Virus record (IMG/VR): IMGVR_UViG_2731957842_000006
Reading direction: 5' to 3' (one strand)
DNA length: 37,265 bases
DNA from: a virus
Taxonomy: Duplodnaviria > Heunggongvirae > Uroviricota > Caudoviricetes
Position numbers and translations under genes: made by a program. Numbering within the stretch: position 1 is the stretch's first letter; the number at the start of each line of letters is the position of its first letter. Below the pieces are notes generated by a model. The model was not told the origin of the DNA, did no database searches, and saw nothing but the letters and a program-made list of their open reading frames with translations. This document shows, piece after piece, positions 8,295 through 23,976 of the stretch.

Positions 8295-9301
8295 TACACC
8301 CTCGCCCAGTTCTCAGCATATGCCTCAAATACCGTCACCCAGGCATCGCCATCGGCTGTCAGATACGAACCAATGTGTCTGACTGATTTCACAAGAAATT
8401 TCCCGGTGAACGTGGTCGAATTTTTTGCGATAACGCTGGGTACCGTTGTATTAGCCATCACAATCGACGCAGCGCCAGAATATAGCCCCTCCGGCAGTTT
8501 AACCACATCACCACATCTGATATCGCCTCTCATAGGGCATTTGAAACTGACGGTAAACGGCGCTATCCATGTCGGCTGCCCGACCAGTTCATGGGCATGA
8601 ATTGTTTTTGGCTCACCCCACTTTGCCGATGCGTTATCGTAGATTCGTATTCTGTCGGAAAGAATACTGATGGCGATTCCGCTATACCTTTCATTACGCA
8701 TCATCGCAATAGAGGCGTTTTTTACGACCATAGCCAGCGAACCAATCTCCGTATATTTGCCCGTCCACGGCTCTGGCAAAACCAGGTTGTCGCTGACTGT
8801 GCAATCAATAAGTTTATTGGGATATGCTTTTTGCAAAGCGCGGACTAAAACATCGCCCACCCTTTCCCCTGCTTCCCCCTGCCCCTCAATTGAAAAAGGT
8901 TTACCGTCATCGGTTTTGCGTATGCTTGGATTTATTACCAGGTTTAAAGTCTGGTTCGTGCCGATCCAGTTGGCATAGGCCAGATAAATTTCACCATAGA
9001 TTACCTCCCCCTGTTGATCCTTATTTGCCAGTGGTAACCCCTGAACAAAGCCTGCTTTCATACGTACCAGACAACCCTGCAAACTTACGCTTTGCTTCAG
9101 CATGTCAATTGGTAATCCATAGATCGTCAGCATCGTACCCGAACAGACTACATCCAGGCCGGTTACTTCAAAGTCAAATTCAACATGCAACCCACATCCT
9201 GGTGTTTCATTGGTATCAAAAGGTCCAATGGGTTTTCCATTGCTATCCACTGGCGGCTTGCCTGTTTTAGGATTAATAATTTCCAGTCGGTAATAACGCA
9301 T
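8294..9301 (-). CDS. putative baseplate hub protein (335 aa)
   Basis: Translationally coupled ORF in the baseplate block after the tape measure gene. Confidence 0.4.
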   Translation of the reverse strand: MRYYRLEIINPKTGKPPVDSNGKPIGPFDTNETPGCGLHVEFDFEVTGLDVVCSGTMLTIYGLPIDMLKQSVSLQGCLVRMKAGFVQGLPLANKDQQGEVIYGEIYLAYANWIGTNQTLNLVINPSIRKTDDGKPFSIEGQGEAGERVGDVLVRALQKAYPNKLIDCTVSDNLVLPEPWTGKYTEIGSLAMVVKNASIAMMRNERYSGIAISILSDRIRIYDNASAKWGEPKTIHAHELVGQPTWIAPFTVSFKCPMRGDIRCGDVVKLPEGLYSGAASIVMANTTVPSVIAKNSTTFTGKFLVKSVRHIGSYLTADGDAWVTVFEAYAENWARV

Positions 9302-9567
9302 TACGAAACCTCAAACTGATTCGTACTTTTGCGAAAAACAAGTTTCCCCGGTGAGCAAGGCAGCGCCAGATTGATGTCGTAACTGTCAGGTGACGCGATC
9401 AAAGGCATGTATACAATCACGTCGCCTGAACTGTCTTTCAGTTCCAGGTAGTAACGATTTGCATACAGATTAAACGGAACGCGGGCGAATGTTTCATATT
9501 CTCCGATTCTGGCCGTGAACTGAAATGGTCCTCGCCCGTCAGGTTTGAAAGGAATTAACGTTGTCAT
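9301..9567 (-). CDS. putative tail/baseplate protein (88 aa)
   Basis: Coupled ORF (stop/start overlap) within the tail operon. Confidence 0.35.
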   Translation of the reverse strand: MTTLIPFKPDGRGPFQFTARIGEYETFARVPFNLYANRYYLELKDSSGDVIVYMPLIASPDSYDINLALPCSPGKLVFRKSTNQFEVS

Positions 9568-10232
9568 AAGCCAAAACCAAACTCCTGCACGACCTGGTTC
9601 TTAATACCTGACCACGATAGCGCCCCGTCTGACGGCATCCCTTTATCAAATTTATCCAGAACGCTCGCCAGCGTTTTTACCGTTTGTTCGACAGACGACA
9701 ATGGTTGCTCAAACTCAATCTGCCAGGTGTGCTGAACCTGCTTGTTCTGCTCAGAGAAACCGGATGTATCGATAAACGACCGCATCAGACAGCGCGTGTA
9801 GATGAAAGATGGCGTCATTACGGTGTAACAACCGCCATACTGGTTATGCATATCGAGCGCCATTTTCAGCGCCGTGAATGTCATCCCCTTAGTGATGTAG
9901 CCACCGTCCTCCGTTGATGCCGGACGGATCATCTGCATGACTACCCGGTTAGGCTTCTTGACGGTCGCATTCGCTGCCGTTACCTGGTTATAGAAATTCA
10001 GGTTGCAAATATCCTGCTGAACCAACGTTGTCCCCGCCATCGGGGTAAATGCCGCCATCGAGCGTGTACGAATCTCGCCATGCAGCAGACCGTTCACAAT
10101 GCTTAGGCCTTCGGTCAAAACAGCAATCGGCATCACCCCGCCGGGAATTTTCGACGCTATGCCATCAACTAAAAGAATGGGCGATACTTCAAACGCCAGT
10201 TTGAAAGCTTGTCCAAAGTAATTAAGTGACAT
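9564..10232 (-). CDS. putative tail protein (222 aa)
   Basis: ORF directly downstream of the tape measure gene, coupled to the next ORF. Confidence 0.35.
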   Translation of the reverse strand: MSLNYFGQAFKLAFEVSPILLVDGIASKIPGGVMPIAVLTEGLSIVNGLLHGEIRTRSMAAFTPMAGTTLVQQDICNLNFYNQVTAANATVKKPNRVVMQMIRPASTEDGGYITKGMTFTALKMALDMHNQYGGCYTVMTPSFIYTRCLMRSFIDTSGFSEQNKQVQHTWQIEFEQPLSSVEQTVKTLASVLDKFDKGMPSDGALSWSGIKNQVVQEFGFGL

Positions 10233-10235
10233 GGT

Positions 10236-12314
10236 TTACCCCGGTATTTGTTGCATTCCGGCGAGTTGTGCCAGTATGTCGGAACCTGGTTTTTGTTGAA
10301 CGTCGAGCCTGATTACCTGAGAAGTATTATTTGGTGAATATACGTTTCCCCGGTTCATTGCCAGCGCCCGCATCACATCATCGCCACTTACTGCACGAGC
10401 GGCGTCCCCATTTTCATGGTTAATAATGCCCTGAATTAGCTTTCTCATTATCTCAAAATTAGAACCATCGATTTTCTCCTTAACACCTAATCCGGTGTAC
10501 TGAGAGAGATAGCTTTTATAGGACGATGTGTTATTTCCATCAGATGAAGGGGCATAAATATCAATAATCTGATCAATCGTATTTTTGCCGCGTTTCAGGT
10601 ATAGCATTACCTGCCGATCTAAGGCAGCAATGCCTTCCAGCATCGTCGGGAAGCTGGCAAAACGGGCATTTGGCCCCGATTCCAGGGTAGCCCCTTTTTG
10701 TCCTGCGAAATTAAGATTTCCGGGATTGTTATTCCTGATCCCTCTGGATAAATATGCAGATCTGTTTACTTGATTTGAAAATCCCTGCAATCCTCCAGGC
10801 CAGACCTTACCCGGATTGTTTTTTTGCCACTCCTGCACTTCGTTAAAATAATCAAAGTTGAAACGCCCCTCCAGCCCTTTCATTTCCTCACTGGTGGTAG
10901 GTGTGTCATTTGTAGGAATAGCCAATCCAGCTACTGTTCCGGCTGTAGCCCCAAGAAGACTTCCACCAACAACACGGGCGGCAACTCCGGTCGTTGTGGC
11001 TGCCACAGCACCAACTCTCGATGGTCCAGCAAGTACTGCGGCCCCAAAAAGCCAGGGATGTTCAACCGCAAAACCAACAAACCCGCTAAGTGCCTTAACA
11101 ACCTTTGCAACATTTTCGGCAAAATTATTCAGGTCGTTATTAAAATCCGGGCCATTTACATACTTACCAAGTTTATCCAGACCTGTTTCAACATCAGTCA
11201 AAATTCTTTTAAAGTTCTCACCGTTAAGGAAATTTAGACCAGCATTCTTTACACCATTAGATATTCTAATTAGCTGTACAGAGTTACCCGACATTACCCC
11301 CTGAAATCCGCTGGTAAGTTGATCCCAGTTATTTTCTAAGTTGCTGGTAAGATTCTGATACTGGCTTGTATGTCCAGAGGTGAGCAACGAGTCATTCTGA
11401 GAAGCTCGCGATAAAAACTCTTTGTTGAGTTCAGGTATTTTGTCCTGATATTTGACTAACTGGTTAGCAATACCAAAATTTACCCATCCAAGGCCACGAC
11501 CTCTGAGCATGCTCTGAGTAAGTCCAGTTCCCTCATACTCCTTTGCAAGAGCAGCAACTCTTTCTAACAATACAGGAAGATTTTCTGCTGCCCCTTTTTT
11601 AGGATTTATCCCTAATCCAATTAGCCCGTTGTAGGCAGGATGCTGAGTGTCATTTTGCGCGGCTGCCAGTGTATTGAGCAAATTACCAACACCGGAAAAA
11701 TAAGGCGAATAAGTGCTTTCTGCCGCCTTTAACTCTCCTGGCGTTGCCTGCAATTCATCAGCATTTTTCTGTTTCTCTACAACATTACGAGCCATCATGC
11801 CAAAGCCAAACGGCCCGGCAACACCCATAACCGCAAGTTTTGTCCCCCACGATACGGTGGTTTTAAACAGGTTGTTTAATCTCGAAGTCGTCGTCCGTAG
11901 CGTAGAATTGATCTGCTTGTAAGTTTTCAGCGTCTGTTTGGCGTTTTTCCCCAGCCCGCTGAGGTACTTATCAAACATCGTTTCGCCGCGACCTTTATAG
12001 TTGCTCACCAGCGAATCAGGTGTTTTCCCGCTGCCAACAAAGCGCCATTTTTCATCCCTTAAACGTCCATCAGTGGAAGCAGCCAGAACTGGCGCGGGTG
12101 AAGATGGTTTCCTGGGAGCCTGATTGGCTTCTCCGCCTGTGGTTGTCTGCCAAGAGCCACCTCCCGGACCGGTATTTGAAGGTATTTTAAGCGGCGTACC
12201 GGCAGGGCCAATCATCAGTCCGTTGCGATACTTTTCAAATATCGCCTCAAGCCGCCTGAGGTGTTCTTCATTAACATCCAGCGTCAGAACTGGCATCTGG
12301 TTACCAGCCATCAC
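10236..12314 (-). CDS. putative tail tape measure protein (692 aa)
   Basis: Largest tail-operon ORF, after the chaperone; Gly/Ala-rich hydrophobic stretches (AVLAGPSRVGAVAATTTGVAARVVGGSLLGATAGTVAGLA) typical of tape measure proteins; C-terminal region with RGIRNNNPGNL motif. Confidence 0.55.
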   Translation of the reverse strand: MMAGNQMPVLTLDVNEEHLRRLEAIFEKYRNGLMIGPAGTPLKIPSNTGPGGGSWQTTTGGEANQAPRKPSSPAPVLAASTDGRLRDEKWRFVGSGKTPDSLVSNYKGRGETMFDKYLSGLGKNAKQTLKTYKQINSTLRTTTSRLNNLFKTTVSWGTKLAVMGVAGPFGFGMMARNVVEKQKNADELQATPGELKAAESTYSPYFSGVGNLLNTLAAAQNDTQHPAYNGLIGLGINPKKGAAENLPVLLERVAALAKEYEGTGLTQSMLRGRGLGWVNFGIANQLVKYQDKIPELNKEFLSRASQNDSLLTSGHTSQYQNLTSNLENNWDQLTSGFQGVMSGNSVQLIRISNGVKNAGLNFLNGENFKRILTDVETGLDKLGKYVNGPDFNNDLNNFAENVAKVVKALSGFVGFAVEHPWLFGAAVLAGPSRVGAVAATTTGVAARVVGGSLLGATAGTVAGLAIPTNDTPTTSEEMKGLEGRFNFDYFNEVQEWQKNNPGKVWPGGLQGFSNQVNRSAYLSRGIRNNNPGNLNFAGQKGATLESGPNARFASFPTMLEGIAALDRQVMLYLKRGKNTIDQIIDIYAPSSDGNNTSSYKSYLSQYTGLGVKEKIDGSNFEIMRKLIQGIINHENGDAARAVSGDDVMRALAMNRGNVYSPNNTSQVIRLDVQQKPGSDILAQLAGMQQIPG

Positions 12315-13005
12315 AATACTCCTGCGGGATTTTTGAATTTGAGCAGCTCACGAAACTGAGCTGCTGTTTTTACATTTAGGCCGGAATCTGCACAGATGTC
12401 TCTGAATCCGGCTCCGGCTGAGTAGTCGAGGATGTCGCTGATGACGTGTTCGCCGTCGCGCCAGAACTGGCGGCTGATTTCAATGTCGGCAATGAAGCGA
12501 TCCATTCCGTAAGATTCAATAACGAGCATTGAGTGCTCCATACTCCATTGACCACATCCATAGTCCCCTTCGCCTGCTCCGGTGAATTTATCGACGAGAC
12601 GCATGTAAAAAAAATGAGCTCACCCGCCACTTCATCCAAATCAATGATTTCACGCTCCAGCGCCATATCGAGAGGGATTGTGTCGTAGCCTTTACCCTCC
12701 ACTGGGTAAACAAGATTTGCCAGGCGAATGACCTCATTAACAAGTGTATTACGGACCCCTTTATCACCTTCCCAGATATTAGAATCACGCGAGATCCGCT
12801 CCAGCATCAAAAAAGCGATACGCGGACCCGCAACGACGCCAAGACCTTCTGAAAAAATGGCAGAAAAAGTTTTACTCAGAATGAAGAAATGCTCTTTAAA
12901 CACCTCTTTGCTAATCGGCGTGGCATGGATCCAGCCATTATCCTTTTCTGTCCGGACAGGAATAATCAGGTTTAAATTTCGCGCGATTTTCATACCAGAT
13001 CCCAC
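12311..13005 (-). CDS. tail assembly chaperone-position protein read in two frames (ORFs 12376..13005 and 12311..12604), joined at a U8 tract
   Basis: Canonical position between tube and tape measure; frame switch (-1) exactly at plus-strand A8 12607-12614; zero-frame continuation is low-complexity, -1 frame continuation reads as protein. Confidence 0.4.
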
Positions 13006-13433
13006 ATTTCAGAGTTGATGTAATACGTACCAGTAATGGTGATGGCCACACCCGGCTCGCCCCCGGCGAAGGTCATATCCTGCACGTTGGTGATCGCCGT
13101 GTTATAGATATCGAAGTCACCGAACACCGTGCTGTCGCTATACACTTTTGCGTCGCCGATCGTGGCATTCTTTTCCCATTGCGTCTTGAATTGTTTTCCC
13201 AGCGCCTGGCTACGCAGCAGATGAACACGCGCCTGTAAAATCATGTATGGCTGCGGCGACTGCACGGCTCCCGTCATAGCGGGTAAAAACTCCGTGATAT
13301 TGCCCTGAAAGGACAATTCGACGCCTTCTTTTGCCAGAAAAGAGGCGGACACATTCAGTTCAGAATGGGAGGTAAATTTAACGCTGGCGCGAACCCGGTT
13401 AAGGGTGCCAACGGGGATCATTGGATTAGGCAC
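12990..13433 (-). CDS. putative tail tube protein (147 aa)
   Basis: Small ORF immediately after the sheath-sized gene and before the chaperone. Confidence 0.5.
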   Translation of the reverse strand: MPNPMIPVGTLNRVRASVKFTSHSELNVSASFLAKEGVELSFQGNITEFLPAMTGAVQSPQPYMILQARVHLLRSQALGKQFKTQWEKNATIGDAKVYSDSTVFGDFDIYNTAITNVQDMTFAGGEPGVAITITGTYYINSEMWDLV

Positions 13434-13444
13434 GGTTCAGTCCC

Positions 13445-14782
13445 TCACGAAAGCTGCATTGTCACATTGATGTTAAAAATGATTTCGACAAATCCGCGCA
13501 TCGGCGTATAGGAGGCCGAAAGGCCTGCATAACGCCCGATACCGTAATCATTGGGATTAGTGTTGATATACTGGCGGAAAGGCACTGCATCGACGACAGG
13601 CTGACCGTTGACCAGGCCGTAAGATACGCCCGTATTGAACACCGCCTGTGCGACCTGCTGCAGACGGTCGATCCCGTCCTGGTTGTAGTAAAGCGGGTTA
13701 ATTGGGTTATTGCTACCGTTGATCACCGTGTTGGCGAGCTGCATATCGACATTAATCTGCACCCAGTCCACGGAATACCAGTACGTCATATCGTTACCGT
13801 CACTGGTAACGCCTTTCACCAGAATCGTGTTGGAAATTCCCCCCTCAGCCCCCGTGTCGACGTAGTTAATATTCTGCTTCGTCATCGTGACCAGAATTGA
13901 ATTTTTGCCCTTGTGGGCGTTTACCGCCTGTAGATAACGAAATGCCATCGGCGGCACCTTGTTGATTTCTGAAGGTGATGCGGAAACATAGTTCCACATT
14001 ACGGCTGCTGCCGCGTTTGTCGCCGGGTACGTATCATCCGCCGTTGCAATAACCGACTTAATACCGGCATAAGGCGAAACGTAATTCGTGTCGTCCGGCG
14101 TTTTCGTCAGCACGAAGAAATACTGCATCGCTTCGTTGGCGGTGTGGAGTTTTGCCAGACTGATAAATTCTGCGTCACCATCCCACCGCTGCGGCACCAG
14201 ATACGCATAAAACCGCAGGAGCGGATCTTCCATATAAGCTTTCAGTGCAGCGATTTCCTTACTGACCCCGCCTTTCTGTACTCCCAGCTCCAGCAGGTAA
14301 ATCCCAACTGAATTTCCCTGGGCAAAAAACGTGTTTACTGCCGTCACCAGATTTTCACTGCCGACAATGGAAAACTGCCCCAGTGTCACTGGCGAACCGG
14401 AAAGCTGAGAATCAGCAATCGTCCAGGTCAGTGTTTTTTCATCCGTGACGGTAGCAGTATATTCGCCATTCCACGCGTCGGGCGAACACCCGGAAACAAC
14501 AATTTTCACCTCAGAACTGTTTTCGCGTCGGATGTTGCTCCCTTCCGGAAGCGTCATCGTAACGGTGACGTTTGCCGCAGATTTTCCTGCGGCAGCCGCC
14601 GACAACGCAGCAATCGGATTTTTAACCAGATCGTTAATATCCTGATTGCTGGTGAGTAATACAGGCTTCCCCGGCTCATGAGTCGTGGAGCCAAACGAGA
14701 GAACCGCAGACATCTGCTGCAGATTCGAGGGTATGGCCCCGATGGTCTGGGACACATTCACCGTGACGATATTAAACCCCAT
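13445..14782 (-). CDS. putative contractile tail sheath protein (445 aa)
   Basis: Size and position upstream of tube, chaperone and tape measure; family not verifiable without a search. Confidence 0.5.
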   Translation of the reverse strand: MGFNIVTVNVSQTIGAIPSNLQQMSAVLSFGSTTHEPGKPVLLTSNQDINDLVKNPIAALSAAAAGKSAANVTVTMTLPEGSNIRRENSSEVKIVVSGCSPDAWNGEYTATVTDEKTLTWTIADSQLSGSPVTLGQFSIVGSENLVTAVNTFFAQGNSVGIYLLELGVQKGGVSKEIAALKAYMEDPLLRFYAYLVPQRWDGDAEFISLAKLHTANEAMQYFFVLTKTPDDTNYVSPYAGIKSVIATADDTYPATNAAAAVMWNYVSASPSEINKVPPMAFRYLQAVNAHKGKNSILVTMTKQNINYVDTGAEGGISNTILVKGVTSDGNDMTYWYSVDWVQINVDMQLANTVINGSNNPINPLYYNQDGIDRLQQVAQAVFNTGVSYGLVNGQPVVDAVPFRQYINTNPNDYGIGRYAGLSASYTPMRGFVEIIFNINVTMQLS

Positions 14783-15726
14783 TATTTAACCTCATATTTA
14801 CAAATGACTTTTTCAATCAACTGCCGGGATATTTCCCGGGCGGTGCTCTGGTAGTAATTCACGTCAAAATCGACAATCTTTTTCTTCGCCAGAGCGTTGA
14901 TTTCAACCTGTCCCGACTTTGCGTCCTGAACCACCGGAATATTGGTTACACCAAACTTTTCCTCCTCCAGCGCCCTGTTCACCACCGAGTCGACAAGATC
15001 CAGCGCCATTTTGTTGCTGAATCCGTAAAGCGTCAGGCGAACCGAATCCTGGACGAGCTGGAATCGCTCACCACCGAAAACAACGGGAGCCATCTGCAAA
15101 GGAATACTGTTGCGAACATCCACCGCGATATACGGAGGGCGAAGGTTCTGCGGTACCAGGTAAGACGGATACACGGTCGCGGCATCTTTCATTTGCAGCC
15201 AGATCGGGATGCTGTTGGATATGATCTGCTCGTCGCTGATATCCTCCTCGCAGTCGATAATCTGGGAACGCATGGTTGGCAAAATCGCCATGCCGCGATA
15301 ATGAAAAATACCCGACTGCTGATAGCGGCTCTCCATTCGAGAAAAAGCGAACTGGACGCCGCCGTACTCACCGAGATAGATCGCATCGGGATTTTCCACA
15401 TTAAAATCATCAACCTGCTGAACAGGCGTGAAAATAATGTTGTTCACATCCTTCGAGACAGACTCGTCCTGAATCGCAATAACCTGACGATGCAGGCTGC
15501 CTTTGATTTTCAGACGAGTTGGTGACTCAATATTCAGACGACACAGTTCATCGCAACTGATGATTTCCGCATTAACCCAATAGACAAAACCATCCAGCGG
15601 CAGAACCTGCCGGACATAGAGCCTGAACGTGATTTCCTGGTCTGACGAGATGGTTTCAACTGCGGATTTAAGAACGGACGAGAGCTGCGAACTGTGCTGT
15701 CCGGCTAATTCTTCAAGACTCGGCAT
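14782..15726 (-). CDS. hypothetical virion protein (314 aa), neck/tail-completion position
   Basis: Coupled ORF immediately upstream of the sheath gene. Confidence 0.35.
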   Translation of the reverse strand: MPSLEELAGQHSSQLSSVLKSAVETISSDQEITFRLYVRQVLPLDGFVYWVNAEIISCDELCRLNIESPTRLKIKGSLHRQVIAIQDESVSKDVNNIIFTPVQQVDDFNVENPDAIYLGEYGGVQFAFSRMESRYQQSGIFHYRGMAILPTMRSQIIDCEEDISDEQIISNSIPIWLQMKDAATVYPSYLVPQNLRPPYIAVDVRNSIPLQMAPVVFGGERFQLVQDSVRLTLYGFSNKMALDLVDSVVNRALEEEKFGVTNIPVVQDAKSGQVEINALAKKKIVDFDVNYYQSTAREISRQLIEKVICKYEVK

Positions 15727-16153
15727 TGTTATCTATCCACGCTATAAAGCTGCCCTTAAACAGGCCGCCATCTATGAATGACGGGCGCCGCTCCCCGGTA
15801 TATTTGTCCTTAAGCCTTGAGTTAACACCCTGTAACGCAGCCTGGGTTGGGACCTGATTTCCGTTGATCGTCATTCCGGCCATTTCTTCGGTTTCAAGAA
15901 ATATATGGAAAATCTTCCCGGTCCCTTCCAGAAAATGCTCGCCAGGTAGCGGAGCCTTATACTTGAAGTGATTGACCAACTGGTACGCCAGTTCAGTACC
16001 TGCCTCCTGGATAATCTCGTCCTTATGCATTTCCCAGAAGTGCGTAAAAATTTCGTATCGCTCCTCGAGGTCACAGGCCACGTCAAACGTGGTTTTTCCC
16101 GGTTCGTCGCCGTAGTCATACGGCTGGTCGATAACCCCAAAACAAAGTTTCAT
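15713..16153 (-). CDS. hypothetical virion protein (about 146 aa)
   Basis: ORF with ATG overlapping the upstream stop (MKLCFGV start). Confidence 0.35.
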   Translation of the reverse strand: MKLCFGVIDQPYDYGDEPGKTTFDVACDLEERYEIFTHFWEMHKDEIIQEAGTELAYQLVNHFKYKAPLPGEHFLEGTGKIFHIFLETEEMAGMTINGNQVPTQAALQGVNSRLKDKYTGERRPSFIDGGLFKGSFIAWIDNNAES

Positions 16154-16590
16154 GGCGTGTAACCCCATACCGTGCCCATCTGCATCAGCACCGCAACAAC
16201 CTGTCGTCCATACGGATCCTGTAACATCTGCAAATCCAGCAAAGACAGATTACTCAGCGCGTCGCTGATGGTGATCGAACCCGATGTCCCCTGGTCTGCT
16301 GCCGCGCTGACAAGCCCGGTAGCCAGTTTCCCAAGGTTGAGTTTTTTTCTCAGGTCGGCAAACCACGAGCCGGGAGCGAAATTCAGGAGAAATGAGGCGG
16401 CAGCGTTATAAACCGTTCGCACATAGATGATGGGTAAACGCTCCAGCCCCTGATCGTGAGGGATTAGCTCCATCGCAGACTGAAAGCAACATTCCAGTGT
16501 CGGATCATCGTCAGCAATAGCGTGAACCGGTACTTTCATGTCGTCACGAACAAAGCGAATAAACCCCTCCAGTGACGGACGCAGGGTCAT
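16150..16590 (-). CDS. hypothetical virion protein (146 aa)
   Basis: Coupled ORF in the neck-like block. Confidence 0.35.
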   Translation of the reverse strand: MTLRPSLEGFIRFVRDDMKVPVHAIADDDPTLECCFQSAMELIPHDQGLERLPIIYVRTVYNAAASFLLNFAPGSWFADLRKKLNLGKLATGLVSAAADQGTSGSITISDALSNLSLLDLQMLQDPYGRQVVAVLMQMGTVWGYTP

Positions 16591-17060
16591 TATTTTTTAA
16601 CCTTAATATTTCGCTTTGTGCTGGGCGGATTTTCCTGTTCGGTGTTAACCGCTTCCCCGGTGATTTCCATTTCAATACCACCTGGTTGAGGTTTTTCGCC
16701 ACTCTGAATCACTGCCTGATCCACTGCGTTATTCAGCGATACGGCGCTGGCTGCGAGAATTTCTTCTGACAGGGATTCCAGATTTTCCGTTTTCTGCTCC
16801 GCGCAATCCTCAATGCGACCAACGCTCACAGGTTTATCGATGGAATAGCAGATACCAGAAAAATTCTTGTCCACCTTGTCACAACGCTGGAATCCGTAAG
16901 GCTCATGCTGTCGGATGATGTGGTCGATAATATCGGACTGATTTTCGATCATATGCTGACGTCCGGACGGAATTGTCACACCGAACGACTGCGTTTTTTC
17001 GGGGAGTTTGTAGTTGAACGTGTGCGGCTGACGTGAGCAGTTAGCGATGTAGAGCTTCAT
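16590..17060 (-). CDS. hypothetical protein (about 156 aa), first gene after the terminase truncation junction
   Basis: ATG at 17060 (track ORF starts at an upstream TTG); preceded by a terminator hairpin. Confidence 0.35.
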   Translation of the reverse strand: MKLYIANCSRQPHTFNYKLPEKTQSFGVTIPSGRQHMIENQSDIIDHIIRQHEPYGFQRCDKVDKNFSGICYSIDKPVSVGRIEDCAEQKTENLESLSEEILAASAVSLNNAVDQAVIQSGEKPQPGGIEMEITGEAVNTEQENPPSTKRNIKVKK

Positions 17061-17071
17061 AAATTTTTCCC

Positions 17072-17100
17072 ACAAAAAAGGGGAGCATTTAGCTCCCCGC
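17072..17100 (-). terminator. intrinsic terminator-like hairpin (GGGGAGC-TAAAT-GCTCCCC followed by T6 on the minus strand)
   Basis: 7-bp GC stem plus U-tract between the 63-aa ORF and the next gene. Confidence 0.45.
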
Positions 17101-17117
17101 GTTATCAGGTTGAACGT

Positions 17118-17309
17118 TTATGCGTATTCCCGGCGTTTGTCCGGCGACTCCTCCACCAGCTCCTGCCATGTCGCGGTAAATTCACGTCGCCACTGGTAAA
17201 ACGTGGTTTTATAGTCATCAGTTATGATGTCCGGGTAATCATTTTTCAGCGACTGATAAAATTCCTCGTTCCAGGCGATGTACTGCACCAGGCGTTCGAA
17301 ATAATCCAT
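17118..17309 (-). CDS. small hypothetical protein (63 aa)
   Basis: ATG overlaps the terminase TGA (TGATG coupling); no similarity to a terminase nuclease domain. Confidence 0.3.
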   Translation of the reverse strand: MDYFERLVQYIAWNEEFYQSLKNDYPDIITDDYKTTFYQWRREFTATWQELVEESPDKRREYA

Positions 17310-18043
17310 CACAGGTTCAATCTGCTGGCGTACACCATCGATAACGCGTCTTTGGACCAGTCCACGAACTCGGCAAGATATTCCTGCTGCCAAACGCGCG
17401 GATCGGATTTCTTCTCCGTTTCCTCCAGTTCTTCTTTCGGAATGTACGGATTCGATGAAGTTGGCGCATGGTGCATGACAAATCCCAGGGATTCATCGTG
17501 GCATATCGCGTAGAAAAAATTGCTCTCGTCGATACCGTTTGGTGTGGAAAATACCCACGCACAGCCACGGTAATCAACAAGCGTCGGGCGTATAGCGCGG
17601 GGCCAGATTTCCTCGAGCATTTCCGGCGATTTAGTGAATGCGGCCTCATCAATCAGCACAGCGTGATATTTACGCCCACGCCCGGCCAGTTTGTTATTGT
17701 CCGTTACCCAAAAGTCGATGCGCCCCCCATTACGGAGAATAATGCGCTTTTCATTTTTTGACTGGCTGAGGATCAGCGGTTGCAGAACGGCGCTAATTTC
17801 ATCCCAGATTTCCTGGTACTGTCGGTATTGTGCGGTAAAAATCCCCACCCTACCCGCGATAAGCTGCCCGGTGGTAGGAACGGCAAATTTCCGCGTCGCG
17901 AAACTGGTAGCGATGTTCACCAGCATCACCGTTTTACCCCAGCGACGACCACAGCATACCGCGTGGAAGCGTTCCTCTATTGCCGCCGTCCATGCAGCTA
18001 TTTGCCCCTCATGAGGTTTTGGGAGGTAGATTTCAATCGACAT
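17309..18043 (-). CDS. terminase large subunit, N-terminal ATPase domain only (244 aa; truncated)
   Basis: Walker A GRRWGKT and Walker B-like VLIDEAAF with STPNG motif; ORF ends after about 244 aa and no nuclease domain, portal or capsid genes follow. Confidence 0.6.
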   Translation of the reverse strand: MSIEIYLPKPHEGQIAAWTAAIEERFHAVCCGRRWGKTVMLVNIATSFATRKFAVPTTGQLIAGRVGIFTAQYRQYQEIWDEISAVLQPLILSQSKNEKRIILRNGGRIDFWVTDNNKLAGRGRKYHAVLIDEAAFTKSPEMLEEIWPRAIRPTLVDYRGCAWVFSTPNGIDESNFFYAICHDESLGFVMHHAPTSSNPYIPKEELEETEKKSDPRVWQQEYLAEFVDWSKDALSMVYASRLNL

Positions 18044-19124
18044 TATCCACTCCCGGCATCGGCAGAGAGTTGTGGATAATTATTTCGTTATTCTCACCAC
18101 CCACACCTTTTTTGAGGTTTTCAATCTCAGTGCGCAGCTTTTCGTTGCGAAGCCTCAGTCCTTCAAGCTCCAGATCATTGCGACTGTCAGTTGCACCACC
18201 AGCAGAACTTCCTTTCGTCGCCGTTATCAGCTTGATAAGTTCGCGCCGGGCGGCAGCCTTATCCTCCAGCAGGATCTCAACGCCGAATTTTCCGAGCTTT
18301 GCCCCTGCATATAATTGCCGCGCATCCCCATCAAGCAGAGCGGTATCAGCCATATAAAGCTGTCCCATTCCCTCACCGCAGCACTTCGGGCAGTCCAGAT
18401 TGGGTATGGCGTTATCAACAAAGCCAAGGCCTCCATATTCCGGCTCGGGTTTGCCATCTCTGGAGGCCTGTGCCGCTGCCTTATCGAATTCTGCAATATC
18501 ACGCCACTGGTAGAGGTGATTCTCGCCCCAGCAATAACGGCAGTTAACACGGCGAAATTGTGCCAACTGATTGGGGTCGGCCTGGACAATGGCCATCAAC
18601 TGACTCACCAGTAAATCCAGGTCTGCGGTATAGCGTTTCTGATACTGATTGCGGAAGTAGCTGATAGCACGATAAACCCTGGCATTTCTAAGCATACGGC
18701 TGGCGTTGCTGTTAGCTGTCGCACCTTGCCCCTCATAACCAGCCAGTCGGTATGCCTCTGTCGGCTTTTTCCCCTGAGCAACAAGCATCGCAAACTTAGC
18801 CTGCTGGTCAGAAATGCCGAATTCATCGGGGCAGAACGAAAATTCCTCCGCGTCGCCCTCATTCAGGCACGCATCGGATACTGGCTTTTTTTTCTGAGAT
18901 TTTCCGTTCCGCTTTTGCGCAGTCTGCGCAGATTTTTTCTGCGCACTTTGTTGCGCAGTTTTGCGCATTTCTGTCTGCGCATTTTTCGGAGGTTTTTTGA
19001 TGTAACGACGGGCTGTTGCGTAATTCAGTCCCCTTGCCTCACACCATGCCACCGGGGATACACCGGAGCGGGTGTATTCAGCAATATATTCCTGCTGCAA
19101 CGCCCCCCAGTCCGGTCTGCTCAT
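18033..19124 (-). CDS. putative terminase small subunit (363 aa; N-terminal HTH, Cys-rich C-terminal region)
   Basis: Directly upstream of and coupled to the terminase ATPase gene; HTH-like segment VSPVAWCEARGLNYATARRYI; CxxC ... CPKCC cysteine cluster. Confidence 0.5.
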   Translation of the reverse strand: MSRPDWGALQQEYIAEYTRSGVSPVAWCEARGLNYATARRYIKKPPKNAQTEMRKTAQQSAQKKSAQTAQKRNGKSQKKKPVSDACLNEGDAEEFSFCPDEFGISDQQAKFAMLVAQGKKPTEAYRLAGYEGQGATANSNASRMLRNARVYRAISYFRNQYQKRYTADLDLLVSQLMAIVQADPNQLAQFRRVNCRYCWGENHLYQWRDIAEFDKAAAQASRDGKPEPEYGGLGFVDNAIPNLDCPKCCGEGMGQLYMADTALLDGDARQLYAGAKLGKFGVEILLEDKAAARRELIKLITATKGSSAGGATDSRNDLELEGLRLRNEKLRTEIENLKKGVGGENNEIIIHNSLPMPGVDNVD

Positions 19125-19127
19125 TAG

Positions 19128-19379
19128 TTAGTCCTGATTTTTATCCACCCTGAGTAGTTCACGCAGGGCAAAGGCATCCCCTTTTCTGGCAAGCTTAAAC
19201 AATGCCGCCCGTAGTTCGGCTTCACCTTTCGCTCTGCCCTTACGGATGGATGCGTAAAAATCTGTCATTGCTTCCCGATTTTCTTTCAGTCGGTTCAGAT
19301 CAACATCCAGAACGTCAGCGATTTGTTGTGCAGTCATCCGGCACGCTGCCAGAGACTCTACTTTCGAATACGGAATCAT
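19128..19379 (-). CDS. small HTH-like protein (83 aa)
   Basis: GGGGGTGA Shine-Dalgarno before the ATG at 19379; helix-turn-helix-like MTAQQIADVLDVD; overlaps the upstream gene end by 65 nt. Confidence 0.35.
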   Translation of the reverse strand: MIPYSKVESLAACRMTAQQIADVLDVDLNRLKENREAMTDFYASIRKGRAKGEAELRAALFKLARKGDAFALRELLRVDKNQD

Positions 19380-20247
19380 TTGTCACCCCCATTGATATGC
19401 AGGGTGTCTTCTTCCTGTATTTTTCGTGAAGGATTTTTACTGCAGCGTTGTTCCAGGTGACCTGATGGTGAATGCGTTTATGGCTGGCACCCATCAGTGA
19501 GATTTTTACGCACGACGGCGCATACATGACGGAGTAAAAACTTTTAACGTAGGTTCCGGAGTCCAGATACAGCTCGGTCATTCCGCCGCTGTTTTTCTGC
19601 GTCTGTTTCTGCCCTAACTGGACAGCACCGATCGTCATAAACAATTCACCACAGCGACCAAGATTCGTATACGTATTCACATCCTCGTTAATGCGCCCCA
19701 TGAATGAGAACGGTCGATCAACGGAACAGATAAAACTGTTCATTGCCTTGCGTTTCACCCACGAAGCATGGCCGCCATTGTCACCAAGAAAATCTCCGCC
19801 CTGCGACATAGCGATGGAAAGCGCAGGTATTGATTCGTAGTACGCCAGCATTTCAGAAAGGATCGCATCCAGTTTTCTTATCGGGAAATAGGCCTGGTCA
19901 TAGTTGCGATCCACCCGAAACTGGAACTCGTGATAATCATCATCGAGCTGAATGAAGTATTTACACCCGACCAGTTTTGCCAGGTCGAAACAGGCATTAC
20001 GGGCGTAAAAAATTGATCGGCGGTCACCGAAATTATCGGCTTCGTCAAAACGACTGGCGATATCGGCTTTGGAAAACACCAGCACCTGTTCACTAAATTC
20101 AGCTATGTAGTGATGCCGTGTATTATCTTCATCATCAACAACGATAAAAATTTTCCCGGTATAGCCAGCACGACGCAACGTCCGGTAAGTCAGAACTTTG
20201 TCCGGTCGCCCGTGAGTCAGAATAAAGGCGCAAAAATCATCACGCAT
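19315..20247 (-). CDS. hypothetical protein (about 310 aa) with DxD-like acidic motifs (IVVDDED, QLDDDYHEF); possible nucleotide-sugar-binding fold
   Basis: Start at 20247 preceded by GGAGGAGGAGGA, which doubles as the Glu-run at the end of the ParB-like gene; function is inference only. Confidence 0.45.
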   Translation of the reverse strand: MRDDFCAFILTHGRPDKVLTYRTLRRAGYTGKIFIVVDDEDNTRHHYIAEFSEQVLVFSKADIASRFDEADNFGDRRSIFYARNACFDLAKLVGCKYFIQLDDDYHEFQFRVDRNYDQAYFPIRKLDAILSEMLAYYESIPALSIAMSQGGDFLGDNGGHASWVKRKAMNSFICSVDRPFSFMGRINEDVNTYTNLGRCGELFMTIGAVQLGQKQTQKNSGGMTELYLDSGTYVKSFYSVMYAPSCVKISLMGASHKRIHHQVTWNNAAVKILHEKYRKKTPCISMGVTNDSVFESRVSGSVPDDCTTNR

Positions 20248-21031
20248 ATTCCTCCTCCTCCCCGCCATGCATGATCTCCACCATACGCTGCGTCATCCGG
20301 ACAAATCCATTTTCAATAGCCTGCTGATAATCAATGATCACCAGCGCCGATTCCTCGAAAAAGCACTGAATTTCAGCGGGGGCGTGAGCGTAATAGTCCG
20401 CAATTCTGCTGAAATTAAACACCGTATGACGTTCTGCCGCACACAGGAGGAATTTCTCAATATCAGGATCAAGGGACGCCGAACGTATCCGGCTGATCAA
20501 CTCCTGAGTTTTCGTATCGTCGTACAGTTCACTGATATCTGGTTTATCGCCCGACGGCTCATAAACAGGCGTATCAATTTTCGTCGTGTACGGTTCCTCC
20601 TCATTTCCTGTACCGGGCAAAACATCCGTCAACAGTTCATCAATTTCTGTCGGGCTGAATCCTGTCAGGGAGATATCAAAATCAGCATTGATTAGGTCCG
20701 ACAGCTCCATCCGTAACAGATCTTCATCCCAGCCAGCATTCATCGGCAGGCGATTATCTGCCAGGCGGTACGCCTTTTTCTGATCATCCGTCAGACCAGA
20801 CAGAACAATAACCGGAACCGAATCCATTTTGAGCGCCTCAGCCGCCATAACGCGACCGTGACCAGCAATAATTTCGCCCTTTTCATCAATCAGCACTGGA
20901 TTAGTCCAGCCGAATTGCTTAATGCTTTCTACCAGTTGTGCCACCTGCTCAGGGCTGTGTGTCCTGGCATTGTGTGCATACGGAGACAGTTCTTGTAACG
21001 GGCGATAGACGATCTTCAATTTCTCGCTCAT
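20240..21031 (-). CDS. ParB-like nuclease-domain protein (263 aa)
   Basis: N-terminal ParB/Srx-like segment (LSPYAHNARTHSPEQVAQLVESIKQFGWTNPVLIDEKGEIIAGHGRVMAA); GAGG Shine-Dalgarno. Confidence 0.7.
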   Translation of the reverse strand: MSEKLKIVYRPLQELSPYAHNARTHSPEQVAQLVESIKQFGWTNPVLIDEKGEIIAGHGRVMAAEALKMDSVPVIVLSGLTDDQKKAYRLADNRLPMNAGWDEDLLRMELSDLINADFDISLTGFSPTEIDELLTDVLPGTGNEEEPYTTKIDTPVYEPSGDKPDISELYDDTKTQELISRIRSASLDPDIEKFLLCAAERHTVFNFSRIADYYAHAPAEIQCFFEESALVIIDYQQAIENGFVRMTQRMVEIMHGGEEEEYA

Positions 21032-21435
21032 ACAGCCTCGCTTTATGAATAAAAAAGCCCGCTATCGGCCAGTACGCTGGGTGCGCGGCGGGTGCCGATG
21101 ACGAGCTTTGGCATTATCGCAACCCCTCACCATGAAGGGCTGCTGTAATGCCTGTTACTCACGAATCAAACGAGCATGCTGACCACTCATTTCAATGCGT
21201 AAGTATTGTGGCTTGCCGTCAATCAACGCGGTGATTAACTTGTCACCTGTAGGTTTCCACATAATTTTCTCCTGTTTTAATGCCCCTTGCCGCCAGGCAG
21301 TTGATCAAAGTTCATCTTGATTCGGCAAGATTTAGAATGAATAAGATAAAATTGGCACACGCAGCAGAATTTCATGCTTTCCGGACGCTGGCGCACCCTT
21401 CATTTTTCAGCAAAATATTCTGCTATTACAGGCGA

Positions 21436-21617
21436 TCAGTTCTGCATACACTGCCGAACACCATCAATAAGCTGACAGACCTGAGACGCGGTATCGAAAA
21501 GCTGGCGCGCCTTATCCAGGCTAACGCATCCCACCAATAAAAAAGGCACCAGTATCGCTACCAGTGCCCATTTCGCCGCTGTTCGCGGCGTTCTGTGTGT
21601 CCAGTGTTTTCTGCTCA
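21436..21617 (-). CDS. small lipoprotein (60 aa), o-spanin-like position after the endolysin
   Basis: Start at internal ATG 21617; signal-peptide-like N-terminus with lipobox LVGC (MSRKHWTHRTPRTAAKWALVAILVPFLLVGC); no cognate i-spanin ORF seen. Confidence 0.4.
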
Positions 21618-21632
21618 TAACACACCTGGTTA

Positions 21633-22016
21633 TCAGCGTTTCAACTGAAAGTGAGGTCCGTCTTTCAGTGTTTTCCAGTCCCCGCCCCATTCGATGGCAG
21701 TTCCCAGCTCTGCGGCAGCCTGCTTAAATGCCTGCGCGATTTTCTCGTACAGAGGCCAGTCCCATGACACCTGGCTACCAATGTAGGCAACAACATCCAC
21801 CGCATCACCTGTCAGGTGGCGGCTGTTCATGGTCTGGCTCTTGCCTTCTGCAACCAGCTGTTTCTGGCGATACTTACTGCGCAGGCCTTCCGTAATACCG
21901 AAATCAACCTCCGTCAGCTCCAGCGCACGGCGAACGACAGCAACCAGCTGTGGTTTGACGCCCTCCAGATTTTTTTCACTGCGACGGCTGAATCTGAATT
22001 TACCCGACATATTCAC
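21633..22016 (-). CDS. endolysin, peptidase M15-like (L-alanyl-D-glutamate peptidase type)
   Basis: 127-aa ORF with SRHLTGDAVDV and DGPHFQL motifs; last gene of a holin-membrane protein-endolysin arrangement. Confidence 0.7.
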   Translation of the reverse strand: MNMSGKFRFSRRSEKNLEGVKPQLVAVVRRALELTEVDFGITEGLRSKYRQKQLVAEGKSQTMNSRHLTGDAVDVVAYIGSQVSWDWPLYEKIAQAFKQAAAELGTAIEWGGDWKTLKDGPHFQLKR

Positions 22017-22288
22017 CTCAACAATGGAAAGATTTTTGTGACGTTCCCGCGTGCGCGTATTACCAGCACACAGAACAACAGATTAAAAAACACTTCCAGC
22101 CAGCCCATTGCTAACGGACGACCACACAGATAGCTGAGTGGCGCAAAGGCATAAAGCAGCATCAACAGCCAGGCCAGCCATGACATCAGCGGTTTATGTC
22201 TGGAATCACGACGACGGTAAAAAAAGAGCGTCAGTACGATAACCGTGCATAACGCCACATTCAGCAATCCGGGAAGGTTACCTGACAT
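22013..22288 (-). CDS. small membrane protein in the lysis cassette (about 91 aa)
   Basis: Start MSGNLPG with GGAGGAGG Shine-Dalgarno; two or three hydrophobic helices; coupled to the endolysin start. Confidence 0.4.
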   Translation of the reverse strand: MSGNLPGLLNVALCTVIVLTLFFYRRRDSRHKPLMSWLAWLLMLLYAFAPLSYLCGRPLAMGWLEVFFNLLFCVLVIRARGNVTKIFPLLR

Positions 22289-22672
22289 TGCCGCCTCCTC
22301 CATCCCGCAGGCGGGAGAACAGGCCGGATACCAGTGATGCAATATCCTGCTGGTGGATGAACGACAGAATCTTCACCGAAATCACCGATACCAGTACCGC
22401 GCAAAGCGCGTCGAGAGATGTGCTGTGTAGCCCCAGTTTTTCGACCAGATAAGACGCCATGACATCCGCCCCCAGCACGCCAACGATAAACGACACCAGA
22501 AAATGCGCCGCCACACGCCAGACAGAAATCTGCTGGGGTATCGTCGCCACAAACAACGCCCCGGCGAATGCACCAAACACAATCCCGAAATCCGTTCCGG
22601 TAAACAGTCCAAATACCGTCGCCCCACCGAGCGCCGCAGCCGTACCGGAACCGGATAAGGGTTCAGACATGC
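22278..22672 (-). CDS. putative holin (about 131 aa)
   Basis: Start MSEPLSG at 22672 with GGAGG Shine-Dalgarno; multiple Gly-rich transmembrane segments; first gene of the lysis cassette. Confidence 0.55.
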
Positions 22673-22689
22673 TTTTTCCTCCCACAAAT

Positions 22690-22718
22690 AAAAAAGGGCC
22701 GCCAGCGGCCCGTAAAAA
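22690..22718 (-). terminator. terminator-like hairpin (GGGCCG-CCAG-CGGCCC followed by T6 on the minus strand) just upstream of the holin
   Basis: GC stem with U-tract about 20 nt upstream of the holin start. Confidence 0.35.
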
Positions 22719-22794
22719 CACCCTGTCAAAGGCACCCGCAGATGCCTTTTGTGTGGTGTTATCTGATGTGATGTGCGCCGGGCGTGGCGCGGAT

Positions 22795-22860
22795 ATGAAA
22801 AAGGCCCGCCGGAGCGAGCCATAAAAAACTGAATAAAAAAAACCGCCAGGTGCGGCGGTT
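22795..22860 (-). repeat. copy A of a roughly 66-bp direct repeat carrying tandem hairpins and U-tracts (terminator 22831-22860)
   Basis: Near-identical to 23475-23537; minus strand AACCGCC-GCACCT-GGCGGTT followed by T9. Confidence 0.6.
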
Positions 22861-23112
22861 AAGGATGTATTTCCGGGCTTGGCTTAGTATATGACCAATC
22901 ACAGTTTTGTTTTTGTCGATGTTTACAACATCAGAATAATGCATTTAAAGTAGTAAAAATATTTGCTAATAATGCATTATTCCGATGGTGTAAAAAATGG
23001 CACTGGAACCGCAACGAATATCACTCATTACAGAACAGGGGGCGCAAGGAACCATAAAAAACACCCTACATATATTATGTCAGTGCCTAACACAATCTCG
23101 CCTTAGTTACTG

Positions 23113-23187
<75 letters not shown>

Positions 23188-23474
23188 ATACTGTGCTGGC
23201 CCCCGGAATAACACGAATTACCAAGAGAGCCCGCACTGGTCTTTCCGGTGGCAAACAGCACCCCTGCTAACATAAAAGATAAACACCTTCCAGACGCAAA
23301 AATACTAACAACTGTTTTTCAGATATCCAAAATATATTTGGTTTTTATTTTTGAAAATATGTATACATATGTATCATAAATATACAAGCCATATCATAAC
23401 CGAATTAAAAATCTTTAGTTATCTCTTTTGCCGTCTGATCACCACCCACCGGCAGCTGAGAATTCCGGCACACA

Positions 23475-23537
23475 ATGAAAAAGGCCCGCCAGGGCGAGCC
23501 ATAAAAACTGAATAAAAAAACCGCCCGGGGCGGCGGC
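23475..23537 (-). repeat. copy B of the roughly 66-bp repeat with terminator hairpin (CCGCC-CGG-GGCGG plus T-run, 23512-23536)
   Basis: Direct repeat of 22795-22860 at high identity; located downstream of the tRNA-like pseudogene. Confidence 0.6.
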
Positions 23538-23902
23538 TAAAACGATAAAAGGACACAATATTATAATGATTATTGGGTTTGGGGCATCGGGTGCCTCCCG
23601 AAGTATTCCACTTTACGTGGATACTGTGGTTTCCCGCTAAACCGACTCTATAAACCACCCTCGCACTGAGGAACGCCCCAATTCATGTTTTCCGACACAG
23701 AGATGGCGCATCACTGGTTACTCCACGCTAAATCCTGCTTCCTTTCGTGGGCAATGCGCCATTTCTGTGTCATAAAAAATACAGCACTGAGTCTGTAACC
23801 GATCTCCATTACAGAATGAGGGACGATAAAGGTATTAAAGAGATCTGTTCCTCACGAAAACCGCCAGTGCTGTAAAAACTTGTCCAAAAAACAATGAAGT
23901 TG

Positions 23903-23976
23903 CGGAGAACAGGAATCGAACCGGCATTACCAACCTAAGGCTGATGTAATAACCACTATACGATACCTGCATATAG
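23903..23976 (-). pseudogene. degenerate tRNA-Gly-like sequence (acceptor and anticodon stems do not pair)
   Basis: Shares D-arm and T-loop (GGTTCGATTCC) with the tRNA at 23113-23187 but the anticodon arm is rearranged and acceptor halves are not complementary. Confidence 0.3.

Follow-up and report, generated by a model that had tools for sequence, protein, structure and literature searches.

A head-less Rac-family prophage of Escherichia coli, very probably a product of decay by deletions

Introduction

Is a prophage that has no head genes but an intact-looking tail and lysis module a tail-only weapon, or is it a phage in decay? The question is raised by the window analysed here, a stretch of DNA of 37,265 nucleotides. 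The original prediction described a small terminase gene (terS) and a large terminase gene (terL) of 244 aa reduced to its ATPase domain, and after them a 63-aa ORF, a terminator, four neck-sized ORFs and a tail module, with a holin-endolysin cassette and without portal or capsid genes. Two explanations were offered, a defective prophage whose head module was lost and a domesticated tail-only particle. The whole predicted order is found on the minus strand. Our comparison with relatives strongly supports the first explanation and speaks against the second.

Results

Identity of the element

The 37-kb window derives from a Rac-family temperate prophage of E. coli, with lambdoid regulation and a contractile tail of the myovirus type. 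Its late region is collinear with that of full-size Rac members, with 95-99% nucleotide identity and the same gene order, apart from two deletions. The immunity region is of the Rac type and consists of the following genes.

31956-32438, plus strand, HTH repressor (RacR-type), divergent from the YdaS and YdaT genes
31595-31897, YdaS_toxin/HTH gene (cro-like)
31189-31611, CII-like gene (YdaT-type, cII-like)

It adjoins the recE/recT early-left operon. The end of the window aligns with recE of the Rac-like prophage of strain VG48B2 (NZ_CP128584.1), recE lies partly within the window, and recT adjoins recE in this near-identical prophage. Replication O/DnaC-like genes are retained together with the repressor/cro/cII-like immunity region. 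The window ends inside the prophage. The chromosomal site is given by proxy: the VG48B2 element, 99.97-100% identical to the window, lies between ttcA-intR-xisR and uspF-ompN, the Rac site. Numerous pseudogenes are annotated in the VG48B2 element.

Packaging genes and the portal/capsid scar

The packaging region contains one intact gene, two gene stumps and the junctions of two deletions.

18033-19124, minus strand, intact small terminase gene terS, 363 aa (phrog_51, 3e-71; Pfam Terminase_2, 9e-9)
17309-18043, minus strand, truncated large terminase gene terL, 244 aa (Pfam Terminase_6N at residues 32-228; phrog_2, 8e-30)
17336-17343, deletion junction 2, imperfect microhomology CATCGA-TA versus CATCGAGTA
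17127-17342, minus strand, portal gene fragment, residues 324-395 of 478 (tblastn with rac41, 97% identity)
17118-17309, minus strand, 63-aa ORF, portal residues 333-395 and the last capsid codons
17118-17128, minus strand, deletion junction 1, a 2-bp TT microhomology at 17127-17128 and the last two capsid codons with the stop
17098-17080, minus strand, intrinsic-terminator-like hairpin GGGGAGC-TAAAT-GCTCCCC followed by T6

The terS homologue is annotated at the equal length of 363 aa in E. coli W and VG48B2. In terL, tblastn with the protein of Rac-SA53 shows that residues 1-234 of 442 are kept with 99% identity (window 18043-17342), followed by a C-terminal tail of 10 out-of-frame residues past the junction. 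The ATPase domain is readable in the sequence, with Walker A (GRRWGKT, residues 32-38) and Walker B (AVLIDE, residues 128-133), while the nuclease domain, residues 235-442, is deleted. No family member with a full length of 244 aa is found; the full-length protein of intact relatives has 442 aa.

The body of the 63-aa ORF is the portal fragment, and its C-terminus reads ...REYA*, in which YA* is derived from the major capsid gene. The ORF is thus a portal/capsid scar. The identity of rac41 as portal is given by phrog_146 (7e-74) and Pfam Phage_portal_3; PGAP labels the portal 'anti-CBASS Acb1 family', which NCBIfam does not support. The hairpin at 17080-17098 stands 3' of the capsid gene in intact relatives, and its flanks are conserved in Rac-SA53. 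The predicted absence of head genes holds across the 37 kb: portal, scaffold/protease and capsid genes are missing, and tblastn with the head proteins of Rac-SA53 leaves only portal residues 324-395. Head genes contiguous with this module occur in other strains only. NCBIfam gives nothing useful for terL, sheath, tube and TAGT. PDB sequence searches with the sheath and the full-length terL as queries return zero matches, so that no structural family can be named by this route.

Deletion junctions

Both junctions could be mapped to the base against three comparators, namely Escherichia phage Rac-SA53 (KU052037), the Rac-site prophage of E. coli W (NC_017664.1, 1.516-1.542 Mb) and VG48B2, using BLAST segment ends and the junction sequences. 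Deletion 1 measures 3,945 bp versus Rac-SA53 and 3,975 bp versus E. coli W. It begins at codon 396 of the portal gene, ends at the third-last major capsid codon and removes the portal C-terminus and the head-morphogenesis, scaffold/protease-like, 205-aa and capsid genes. Deletion 2 measures 1,606 bp versus both VG48B2 and E. coli W, has an imperfect 9-bp microhomology, and removes terL from codon 235, that is, the nuclease domain, together with portal codons 1-323. The names of the lost head genes were set by family searches. An origin from an IS element or a site-specific event is rejected, as the junctions have only 2-9 bp of microhomology and foreign DNA is absent.

A real head module that was collapsed or dropped in assembly would give the same picture. 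The likely source of the window is a draft assembly, and every indel relative to VG48B2 sits in a homopolymer run. However, the exact 244-aa protein with its surroundings, and with it the junction-2 sequence, is present in three independent datasets, one NCBI draft genome and two SRA runs assembled by Logan; in a large assembly index, the exact truncated terL was found in three sample sets only. Junction 1 is present also in a closed genome, and both junctions show microhomology rather than collapsible repeats. The probability of an artefact is therefore close to nil.

Neck, tail and baseplate

Downstream of the scar, the structural genes are arranged as follows.

16590-17075, minus strand, neck-position ORF (homologue rac46)
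16150-16590, minus strand, neck-position ORF (homologue rac47)
15713-16168, minus strand, neck-position ORF (homologue rac48)
14782-15726, minus strand, neck-position ORF (homologue rac49)
13445-14782, minus strand, tail sheath, 445 aa (phrog_205 'tail sheath', 1.3e-54; 97% identical to rac50)
12376-13433, minus strand, tube-position ORF of 147 aa and chaperone-position ORF of 209 aa (phrog_6566 and phrog_11810, end to end)
10236-12314, minus strand, tape measure, 692 aa, with a C-terminal lytic transglycosylase domain (phrog_7694, full length; phrog_2276, 4e-31)
1666-10232, minus strand, baseplate and fibre module (full-length matches to Rac-SA53 proteins)
8294-9301, minus strand, baseplate hub
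7581-8294, minus strand, baseplate protein
5642-6816, minus strand, HSDR_N endonuclease moron within the baseplate and fibre module
4396-5601, minus strand, baseplate J
2214-3767, minus strand, tail fibre
1666-2211, minus strand, fibre assembly protein

The four neck-position ORFs are full length, each matching one PHROG of unknown function end to end (phrog_6737, phrog_6356, phrog_6560 and phrog_6359), and are 98.6-99.4% identical to Rac-SA53 proteins. Gene order points to a neck role for them, and likewise to tube and chaperone roles for the ORFs matching phrog_6566 and phrog_11810, again of unknown function. The sheath assignment stands on one PHROG, and Pfam recognises none of the sheath, tube and neck proteins. 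The tape measure is annotated as an SLT-domain protein in relatives. Taken together, the contractile-tail set of sheath, tube-position ORF, tape measure, hub, baseplate J, fibre and fibre chaperone is present at full length. All neck, tail and lysis ORFs are full length and 91-100% identical to those of the intact phage, with the sole exception of baseplate J, where a possible homopolymer frameshift concerns the last 16 codons.

Lysis cassette and loss of the late-gene switch

The predicted holin-endolysin cassette is found upstream of terS, and further upstream lies what is left of the late-gene switch.

21436-22721, minus strand, lysis cassette with two holins, M15 endolysin and a 60-aa lipoprotein-like ORF (phrog_198, phrog_217, phrog_465; Pfam Peptidase_M15_4)
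25954-26037, minus strand, remnant of a Q antiterminator gene (DUF1133 family), the last 27 of about 180 codons, with stop codons before it
25796-25767, minus strand, promoter-like site TTGATA-18-TATATT (consensus scan)
25672-25650, minus strand, terminator-like hairpin (consensus scan)

The two holins and the M15 endolysin occupy 21633-22721 and are followed by the 60-aa ORF; a two-component spanin is not recognised among the profile matches in the cassette. The intact Q gene matches DUF1133 (6e-92) and, above cutoff, Phage_antitermQ, and relatives have the intact order DUF1367-DUF1364-DUF1133. In the window a third lesion has removed DUF1367, DUF1364 and all of the Q-type antiterminator except 27 codons. 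The rem/hokD segment flanking this lesion is mosaic, with only 65% protein identity to Rac-SA53. The promoter-like site followed by the terminator-like hairpin (25650-25796) resembles the pR'/tR' arrangement of lambda and may function likewise, and the consensus scan finds six or more terminator-like hairpins in the interval from the Q remnant to the holins. With Q gone, transcripts started at the late promoter should end at the terminators that precede the lysis and tail genes. These two modules, although intact in appearance, would then most likely be silent relics that mutation has yet to reach.

Several observations count against a view of decay only. The neck, tail and lysis ORFs are still full length, promoter and terminators are called from consensus matches only, and a Q of the same type from a co-resident prophage could switch the late operon on in trans. 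Tails of myoviruses assemble without need of a head. When portal or capsid genes are deleted from prophages by engineering, killing tail particles are produced, and deletions of this kind are enough to obtain tailocins in experiments (PMC10670071). By this route the head deletion would have turned the prophage into a producer of free contractile tails, released by holin and endolysin and killing competing E. coli, with expression by read-through or by Q supplied in trans from another lambdoid prophage. The tail gene set and the holin and endolysin genes are complete and undamaged, the immunity region and replication genes are present, and DUF1133-type Q genes are frequent in E. coli prophages. 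On the other hand, the element's own Q is destroyed, its late genes lie behind multiple terminator-like hairpins, and a spanin pair is unrecognised. The intact terS, the terL and portal stubs and the replication O/DnaC-like and immunity genes are all kept, unlike in streamlined tailocin loci.

Relatives and spread of the architecture

The head module is complete in 81 of the 90 genomes that carry it. Junction 1 is shared only with VG48B2, one of 5,426 complete E. coli genomes, and junction 2 occurs in none of these 5,426. Between the window and VG48B2 we count one substitution and four homopolymer indels over about 33 kb, next to one large private deletion on either side (1,606 bp in the window, 4,184 bp in VG48B2), which indicates that deletions outpace point mutation. 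The head-less state thus appears to be recent and private to this lineage. In the tail region the two head-less lineages differ by zero substitutions; since virtually no divergence has accumulated since the head deletion, there is no signal of selection on the tail.

Two independent relatives integrated at this site carry other head deletions. ETEC4069 has in addition a truncated tape measure, and ETEC1748 is without sheath, tube, rac49 and baseplate J. Head and tail genes are lost without evident preference in these two sister elements. For the reading as a nascent tailocin, both the missing conservation of the head-less state across strains and the loss of tail genes in sister elements are unfavourable, and we consider it clearly unlikely. 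Very unlikely is also the idea that a tailocin is seen here at the first step of its origin, after a natural loss of the head from a myovirus-tailed Rac prophage, with the undamaged tail and lysis module fired in trans by the Q of a co-resident lambdoid prophage; if true, inducing that other prophage would release killing tails.

The element could further give its tails to capsids made in the same cell by another element, for instance a capsid-forming satellite or a prophage whose head module is compatible. All four neck ORFs, which would link tail to head, are intact, and head-only satellites that borrow helper tails exist. However, the loss of Q poses the same expression problem, the window shows no partner element, and this variant is rare. 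To our knowledge, the described capsid-forming satellites use siphovirus tails of their helpers. We regard such tail donation as highly improbable.

Discussion

The window is very probably a defective, decaying Rac-family prophage that lost its head via deletions. With both junctions mapped, terL reduced to 234 of 442 residues and the 63-aa ORF explained as a scar, it appears as a decay product rather than an evolved tail-only weapon. The alternative of a domesticated particle is not supported, given the private and shallow lineage, the packaging, replication and immunity genes with their scars, the Q remnant, and the relatives that lose tail genes.

Three losses mark the decay. A first, illegitimate deletion (deletion 1, 3,975 bp versus E. 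coli W) stripped most head genes, deletion 2 (1,606 bp) took the nuclease domain from terL and codons 1-323 from the portal gene, and a third lesion destroyed the late-gene switch Q. Such an element would be unable to build capsids or to cut and package DNA. The remaining role of its tail and lysis modules would most plausibly be that of raw material with which incoming lambdoid phages can recombine; recE lies partly in the window, and recT adjoins it in VG48B2.

This is a cleanly mapped case of prophage decay by successive microhomology deletions, of limited importance beyond bookkeeping, in which the strain and VG48B2 as a pair show deletions accruing faster than point substitutions. For genome scans it means that the late activator, cross-strain conservation and fresh gene stumps should be checked before a head-less tail and lysis prophage is called a tailocin.

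Comparison with known systems

Rac-SA53 and the E. coli W prophage have the same gene order from the holins through terS, terL, neck, sheath, tape measure and baseplate to the fibres, with 95-99% nucleotide identity across the shared parts, and E. coli W also shares the ParB-like/TAGT/69-aa/363-aa terS arrangement. Both have complete terL (442 aa), portal (478 aa) and major capsid (342 aa) genes as well as the head-morphogenesis, DUF2213 scaffold/protease-like and 205-aa genes; relative to them, the window lacks 5.6 kb of this module. In Rac-SA53 the DUF1133 Q is intact, whereas the window has lost it. The VG48B2 prophage shares with the window its near identity, junction 1, the Q remnant and the chromosomal site. 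It differs in that full-length terL and portal codons 1-395 are kept, and in that 4,184 bp of the immunity/early-left region, present in the window, are lost.

The cryptic Rac of K-12 belongs to the same family and has the same integration site, RacR/YdaS/YdaT-type immunity, recET, the ParB-like ynaK and hokD/rem-type neighbours, and it is likewise defective through deletion. On the K-12 map almost no structural genes are left in it, and the tail module is gone too. The window stands at a far earlier stage, and K-12 Rac represents the end state of the same decay process.

A literature search on Rac-linked tailocins of E. coli gave nothing specific. R-type tailocins (R-pyocins, carotovoricin) and engineered head-less phages resemble the window in having a contractile-tail set with holin and endolysin and no capsid genes. 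Tailocin loci, however, are streamlined, conserved across strains and equipped with working dedicated regulators, whereas the window has fresh gene stumps, keeps packaging, replication and immunity genes, has its late activator destroyed and is private in its distribution.

Identity and gene layout of the prophage

Integration site, immunity type and collinearity place the element in the Rac prophage family. Its nearest relative, the prophage of E. coli strain VG48B2 (NZ_CP128584.1), is 99.97-100% identical to the window and is located between ttcA-intR-xisR and uspF-ompN, which is the Rac attachment site. The immunity genes of the window are of the Rac type: YdaS-like and CII-like genes are transcribed divergently from the gene for an HTH repressor. 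Escherichia phage Rac-SA53 (KU052037) and a prophage at the Rac site of E. coli W (NC_017664.1) are relatives of full size. Contig JTFE01000023.1 (GCA_001441335.1) is 100% identical to the window over the 20.7-kb and 7.2-kb stretches compared. A Logan assembly of SRR32363103 also shows 100% identity, and SRR2070767 is nearly identical. The Rac-type neck and sheath region also matches PP818812.1, "Actinobacillus phage vB_Apl-pPE4", at 97.8% identity. A phage with a Pasteurellaceae host would not be expected to carry this region, which points to a wrong host label or to an E. coli prophage that was induced.

The late genes are found on the minus strand.

Features of the window
About 26.9-32.4 kb: immunity and replication region
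Between this region and the antiterminator remnant: hokD and rem
24787-25506, minus: multi-pass membrane protein, 239 aa (phrog_1521 and Pfam TfpB, precomputed hits)
Between the membrane-protein gene and the holins: three tRNA genes
21436-22721: two holins, M15 endolysin and a 60-aa lipoprotein-like ORF
19315-21031, minus: ParB-like gene and TAGT-family glycosyltransferase
18033-19124, minus: terS
17309-18043, minus: terL-like ORF, 244 aa
17118-17309, minus: 63-aa ORF
17098-17080, minus: terminator-like hairpin
Between this hairpin and the sheath: four ORFs of 146-314 aa
13445-14782, minus: sheath (phrog_205, 1e-54)
After the sheath: tube-position and chaperone-position ORFs
After the chaperone-position ORF: tape measure, 692 aa, with transglycosylase domain
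Last in late-gene order: baseplate genes, tail fibre and fibre-assembly protein

With the late promoter region on one side and the tRNA and lysis genes on the other, the gene for the 239-aa membrane protein sits in a moron position that holds toxin genes in Rac-SA53. The tRNA-Gly (23115-23187) is flanked by two near-identical pairs of terminator-like hairpins on the minus strand (22803-22860 and 23483-23538), and this arrangement resembles a short block that was duplicated between the tRNA cluster and the holins. Directly upstream of terS lie genes for a 263-aa protein resembling ParB/Srx and for a member of the TET-associated glycosyltransferase family (TAGT, 1e-33). They suggest a DNA-modification module, but the window shows no TET/JBP-type oxygenase gene. 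The pair is also kept in the E. coli W prophage, in the same ParB-like/TAGT/69-aa/363-aa terS arrangement.

Two deletions in the head region

The original prediction described a head-less architecture, with the terminase cut to its ATPase domain, no portal or capsid, and intact-looking tail and lysis modules. Every item it listed is accurate in the window, and comparison with intact relatives maps the deletions to the base. In the alignment to the E. coli W prophage sequence (L009), window 11782-17128 corresponds to L009 9339-14684, window 17127-17343 to 18660-18876, and window 17336-22528 to 20483-25673. From the gaps between these alignment blocks, two blocks are therefore missing from the window: 3,975 bp at junction 1 (17127/17128) and 1,606 bp at junction 2 (17336-17343). 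Comparisons with Rac-SA53 and VG48B2 give the same picture. In tblastn searches with Rac-SA53 proteins, residues 1-234 of 442 of terL and 324-395 of 478 of the portal survive, and rac42, rac43, rac44 and rac45 are unmatched in the window. Family searches identify the portal as rac41 (phrog_146, 7e-74; Pfam Phage_portal_3), rac42 as a head-morphogenesis protein, rac43 as a DUF2213 scaffold/protease-like protein and rac45 as the major head protein (phrog_6671 over its full length; phrog_264, 1.6e-8); rac44, of 205 aa, is assigned no function. Only the last two codons and the stop of the capsid gene remain at junction 1.

RefSeq/PGAP labels the portal of this phage family "anti-CBASS protein Acb1 family protein" (L009 18408-19844; L003 25371-26555). 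This label is contradicted by the PHROG portal match (7e-74) and Pfam Phage_portal_3, NCBIfam gives no Acb1 match, and it is probably a propagated annotation error.

The two ORFs at the junctions are deletion scars. The 244-aa ORF consists of terL residues 1-234, which include the complete ATPase domain (Terminase_6N at residues 32-228, with Walker A at 32-38 and Walker B at 128-133), and of 10 further codons that are out of frame. In the 63-aa ORF, portal residues 333-395 are read in frame; the ORF then crosses junction 1 and ends (...REYA*) on the capsid gene's final two codons and stop. The hairpin at 17098-17080 is the terminator found 3' of the capsid gene in intact relatives. Microhomology amounts to 2 bp (TT) at junction 1 and to an imperfect 9-bp match at junction 2 (CATCGA-TA versus CATCGAGTA). 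Because microhomology is present and the junction sequences hold no foreign DNA, both look like ordinary illegitimate deletions.

Order of events

VG48B2 has junction 1 in common with the window but retains full terL and portal codons 1-395. In its early region, 4,184 bp are missing that the window retains at 30474-34657. The common ancestor was therefore head-less already, with a further block then lost separately in each descendant. A comparison over about 33 kb shows one substitution and four one-base indels between VG48B2 and the window, all four indels in homopolymer runs. Large deletions therefore accumulated faster than point changes, as expected for an unselected prophage with deletional bias.

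The 30474-34657 block holds a replication-initiator sequence, cII-like and cro-like genes, a RacR-type repressor and a Kil-like gene; its loss in VG48B2 is reciprocal to the junction 2 loss of the window, the prophages being otherwise identical. An endonuclease moron with a type I restriction HSDR_N domain lies inside the baseplate module (5642-6816, minus), where Rac-SA53 has antirepressor-type morons. This gene encodes 386 aa in VG48B2; in the window it reads as two ORFs of 133 and 269 aa, since a T run at 6426 differs by one base. At 29438, another T run with a one-base difference would leave the DUF1627 protein without its first 57 or so residues (202 aa versus 253 aa in VG48B2). In baseplate J, an A run at 4429 is one A longer and puts the last 16 codons out of frame, giving a protein of 401 aa; its counterparts in VG48B2, Rac-SA53 and E. 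coli W have 408 aa. The 401-aa form, found only in GCA_001441335.1, may reflect either a sequencing error or a private mutation.

Tail-only particle or decaying prophage

The original prediction left open whether the element is a defective prophage or a domesticated tail-only, tailocin-like element. The neck, tail and lysis ORFs are full length, except for the frameshifted end of baseplate J, and 91-100% identical to Rac-SA53. Heads are not needed for assembly of contractile phage tails. In experiments, prophages from which portal or capsid genes were deleted have yielded killing particles (PMC10670071). Against domestication, the window is not streamlined: terS, the terL and portal stubs, replication genes and the immunity region all remain.

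The predicted regulation of the tail genes points the same way. In intact relatives, DUF1367, DUF1364 and DUF1133 proteins precede the late operon; the DUF1133 protein of Rac-SA53 is annotated as the late-gene antiterminator Q (6e-92 on DUF1133, passing the Pfam Phage_antitermQ cutoff). DUF1367 and DUF1364 are absent from the window, and only the last 27 codons of Q remain (25954-26037), preceded by stop codons. A promoter-like site and terminator-like hairpin are predicted 3' of this remnant (25650-25873) in a lambda pR'/tR'-like arrangement, with four more terminator-like hairpins before the holins. With Q lost and these hairpins in the path, late transcription should stop short of the lysis and tail genes, though a same-type Q from another prophage might act in trans.

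Distribution also argues against domestication. Among 5,426 complete E. coli genomes, junction 1 is present in one and junction 2 is absent from all, whereas the head module is whole in 81 of the 90 genomes carrying it. In a very large assembly index, exact copies of the 244-aa protein come from three sample sets. Two sister elements at the same site have damaged or lost tail genes too: in ETEC4069 everything from the portal through the scaffold gene is missing and the tape measure is truncated, and in ETEC1748 the loss runs from the scaffold C-terminus through the capsid gene, with rac49, sheath, tube and baseplate J missing as well. The Rac-site relatives thus decayed differently, with no preferential retention of tail genes.

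We consider a domesticated tail-only element very improbable, given its distribution, lack of streamlining, loss of Q and the sister elements. The defective-prophage half of the prediction stands on the mapped deletions and scar ORFs: the element is an ordinary, recent, lineage-private decay product. Its likeness to tailocin loci is confined to gene content; among the defining features tested, it lacks streamlining, conservation and a working activator. K-12 Rac is also a defective prophage, and the window represents an earlier stage of decay.
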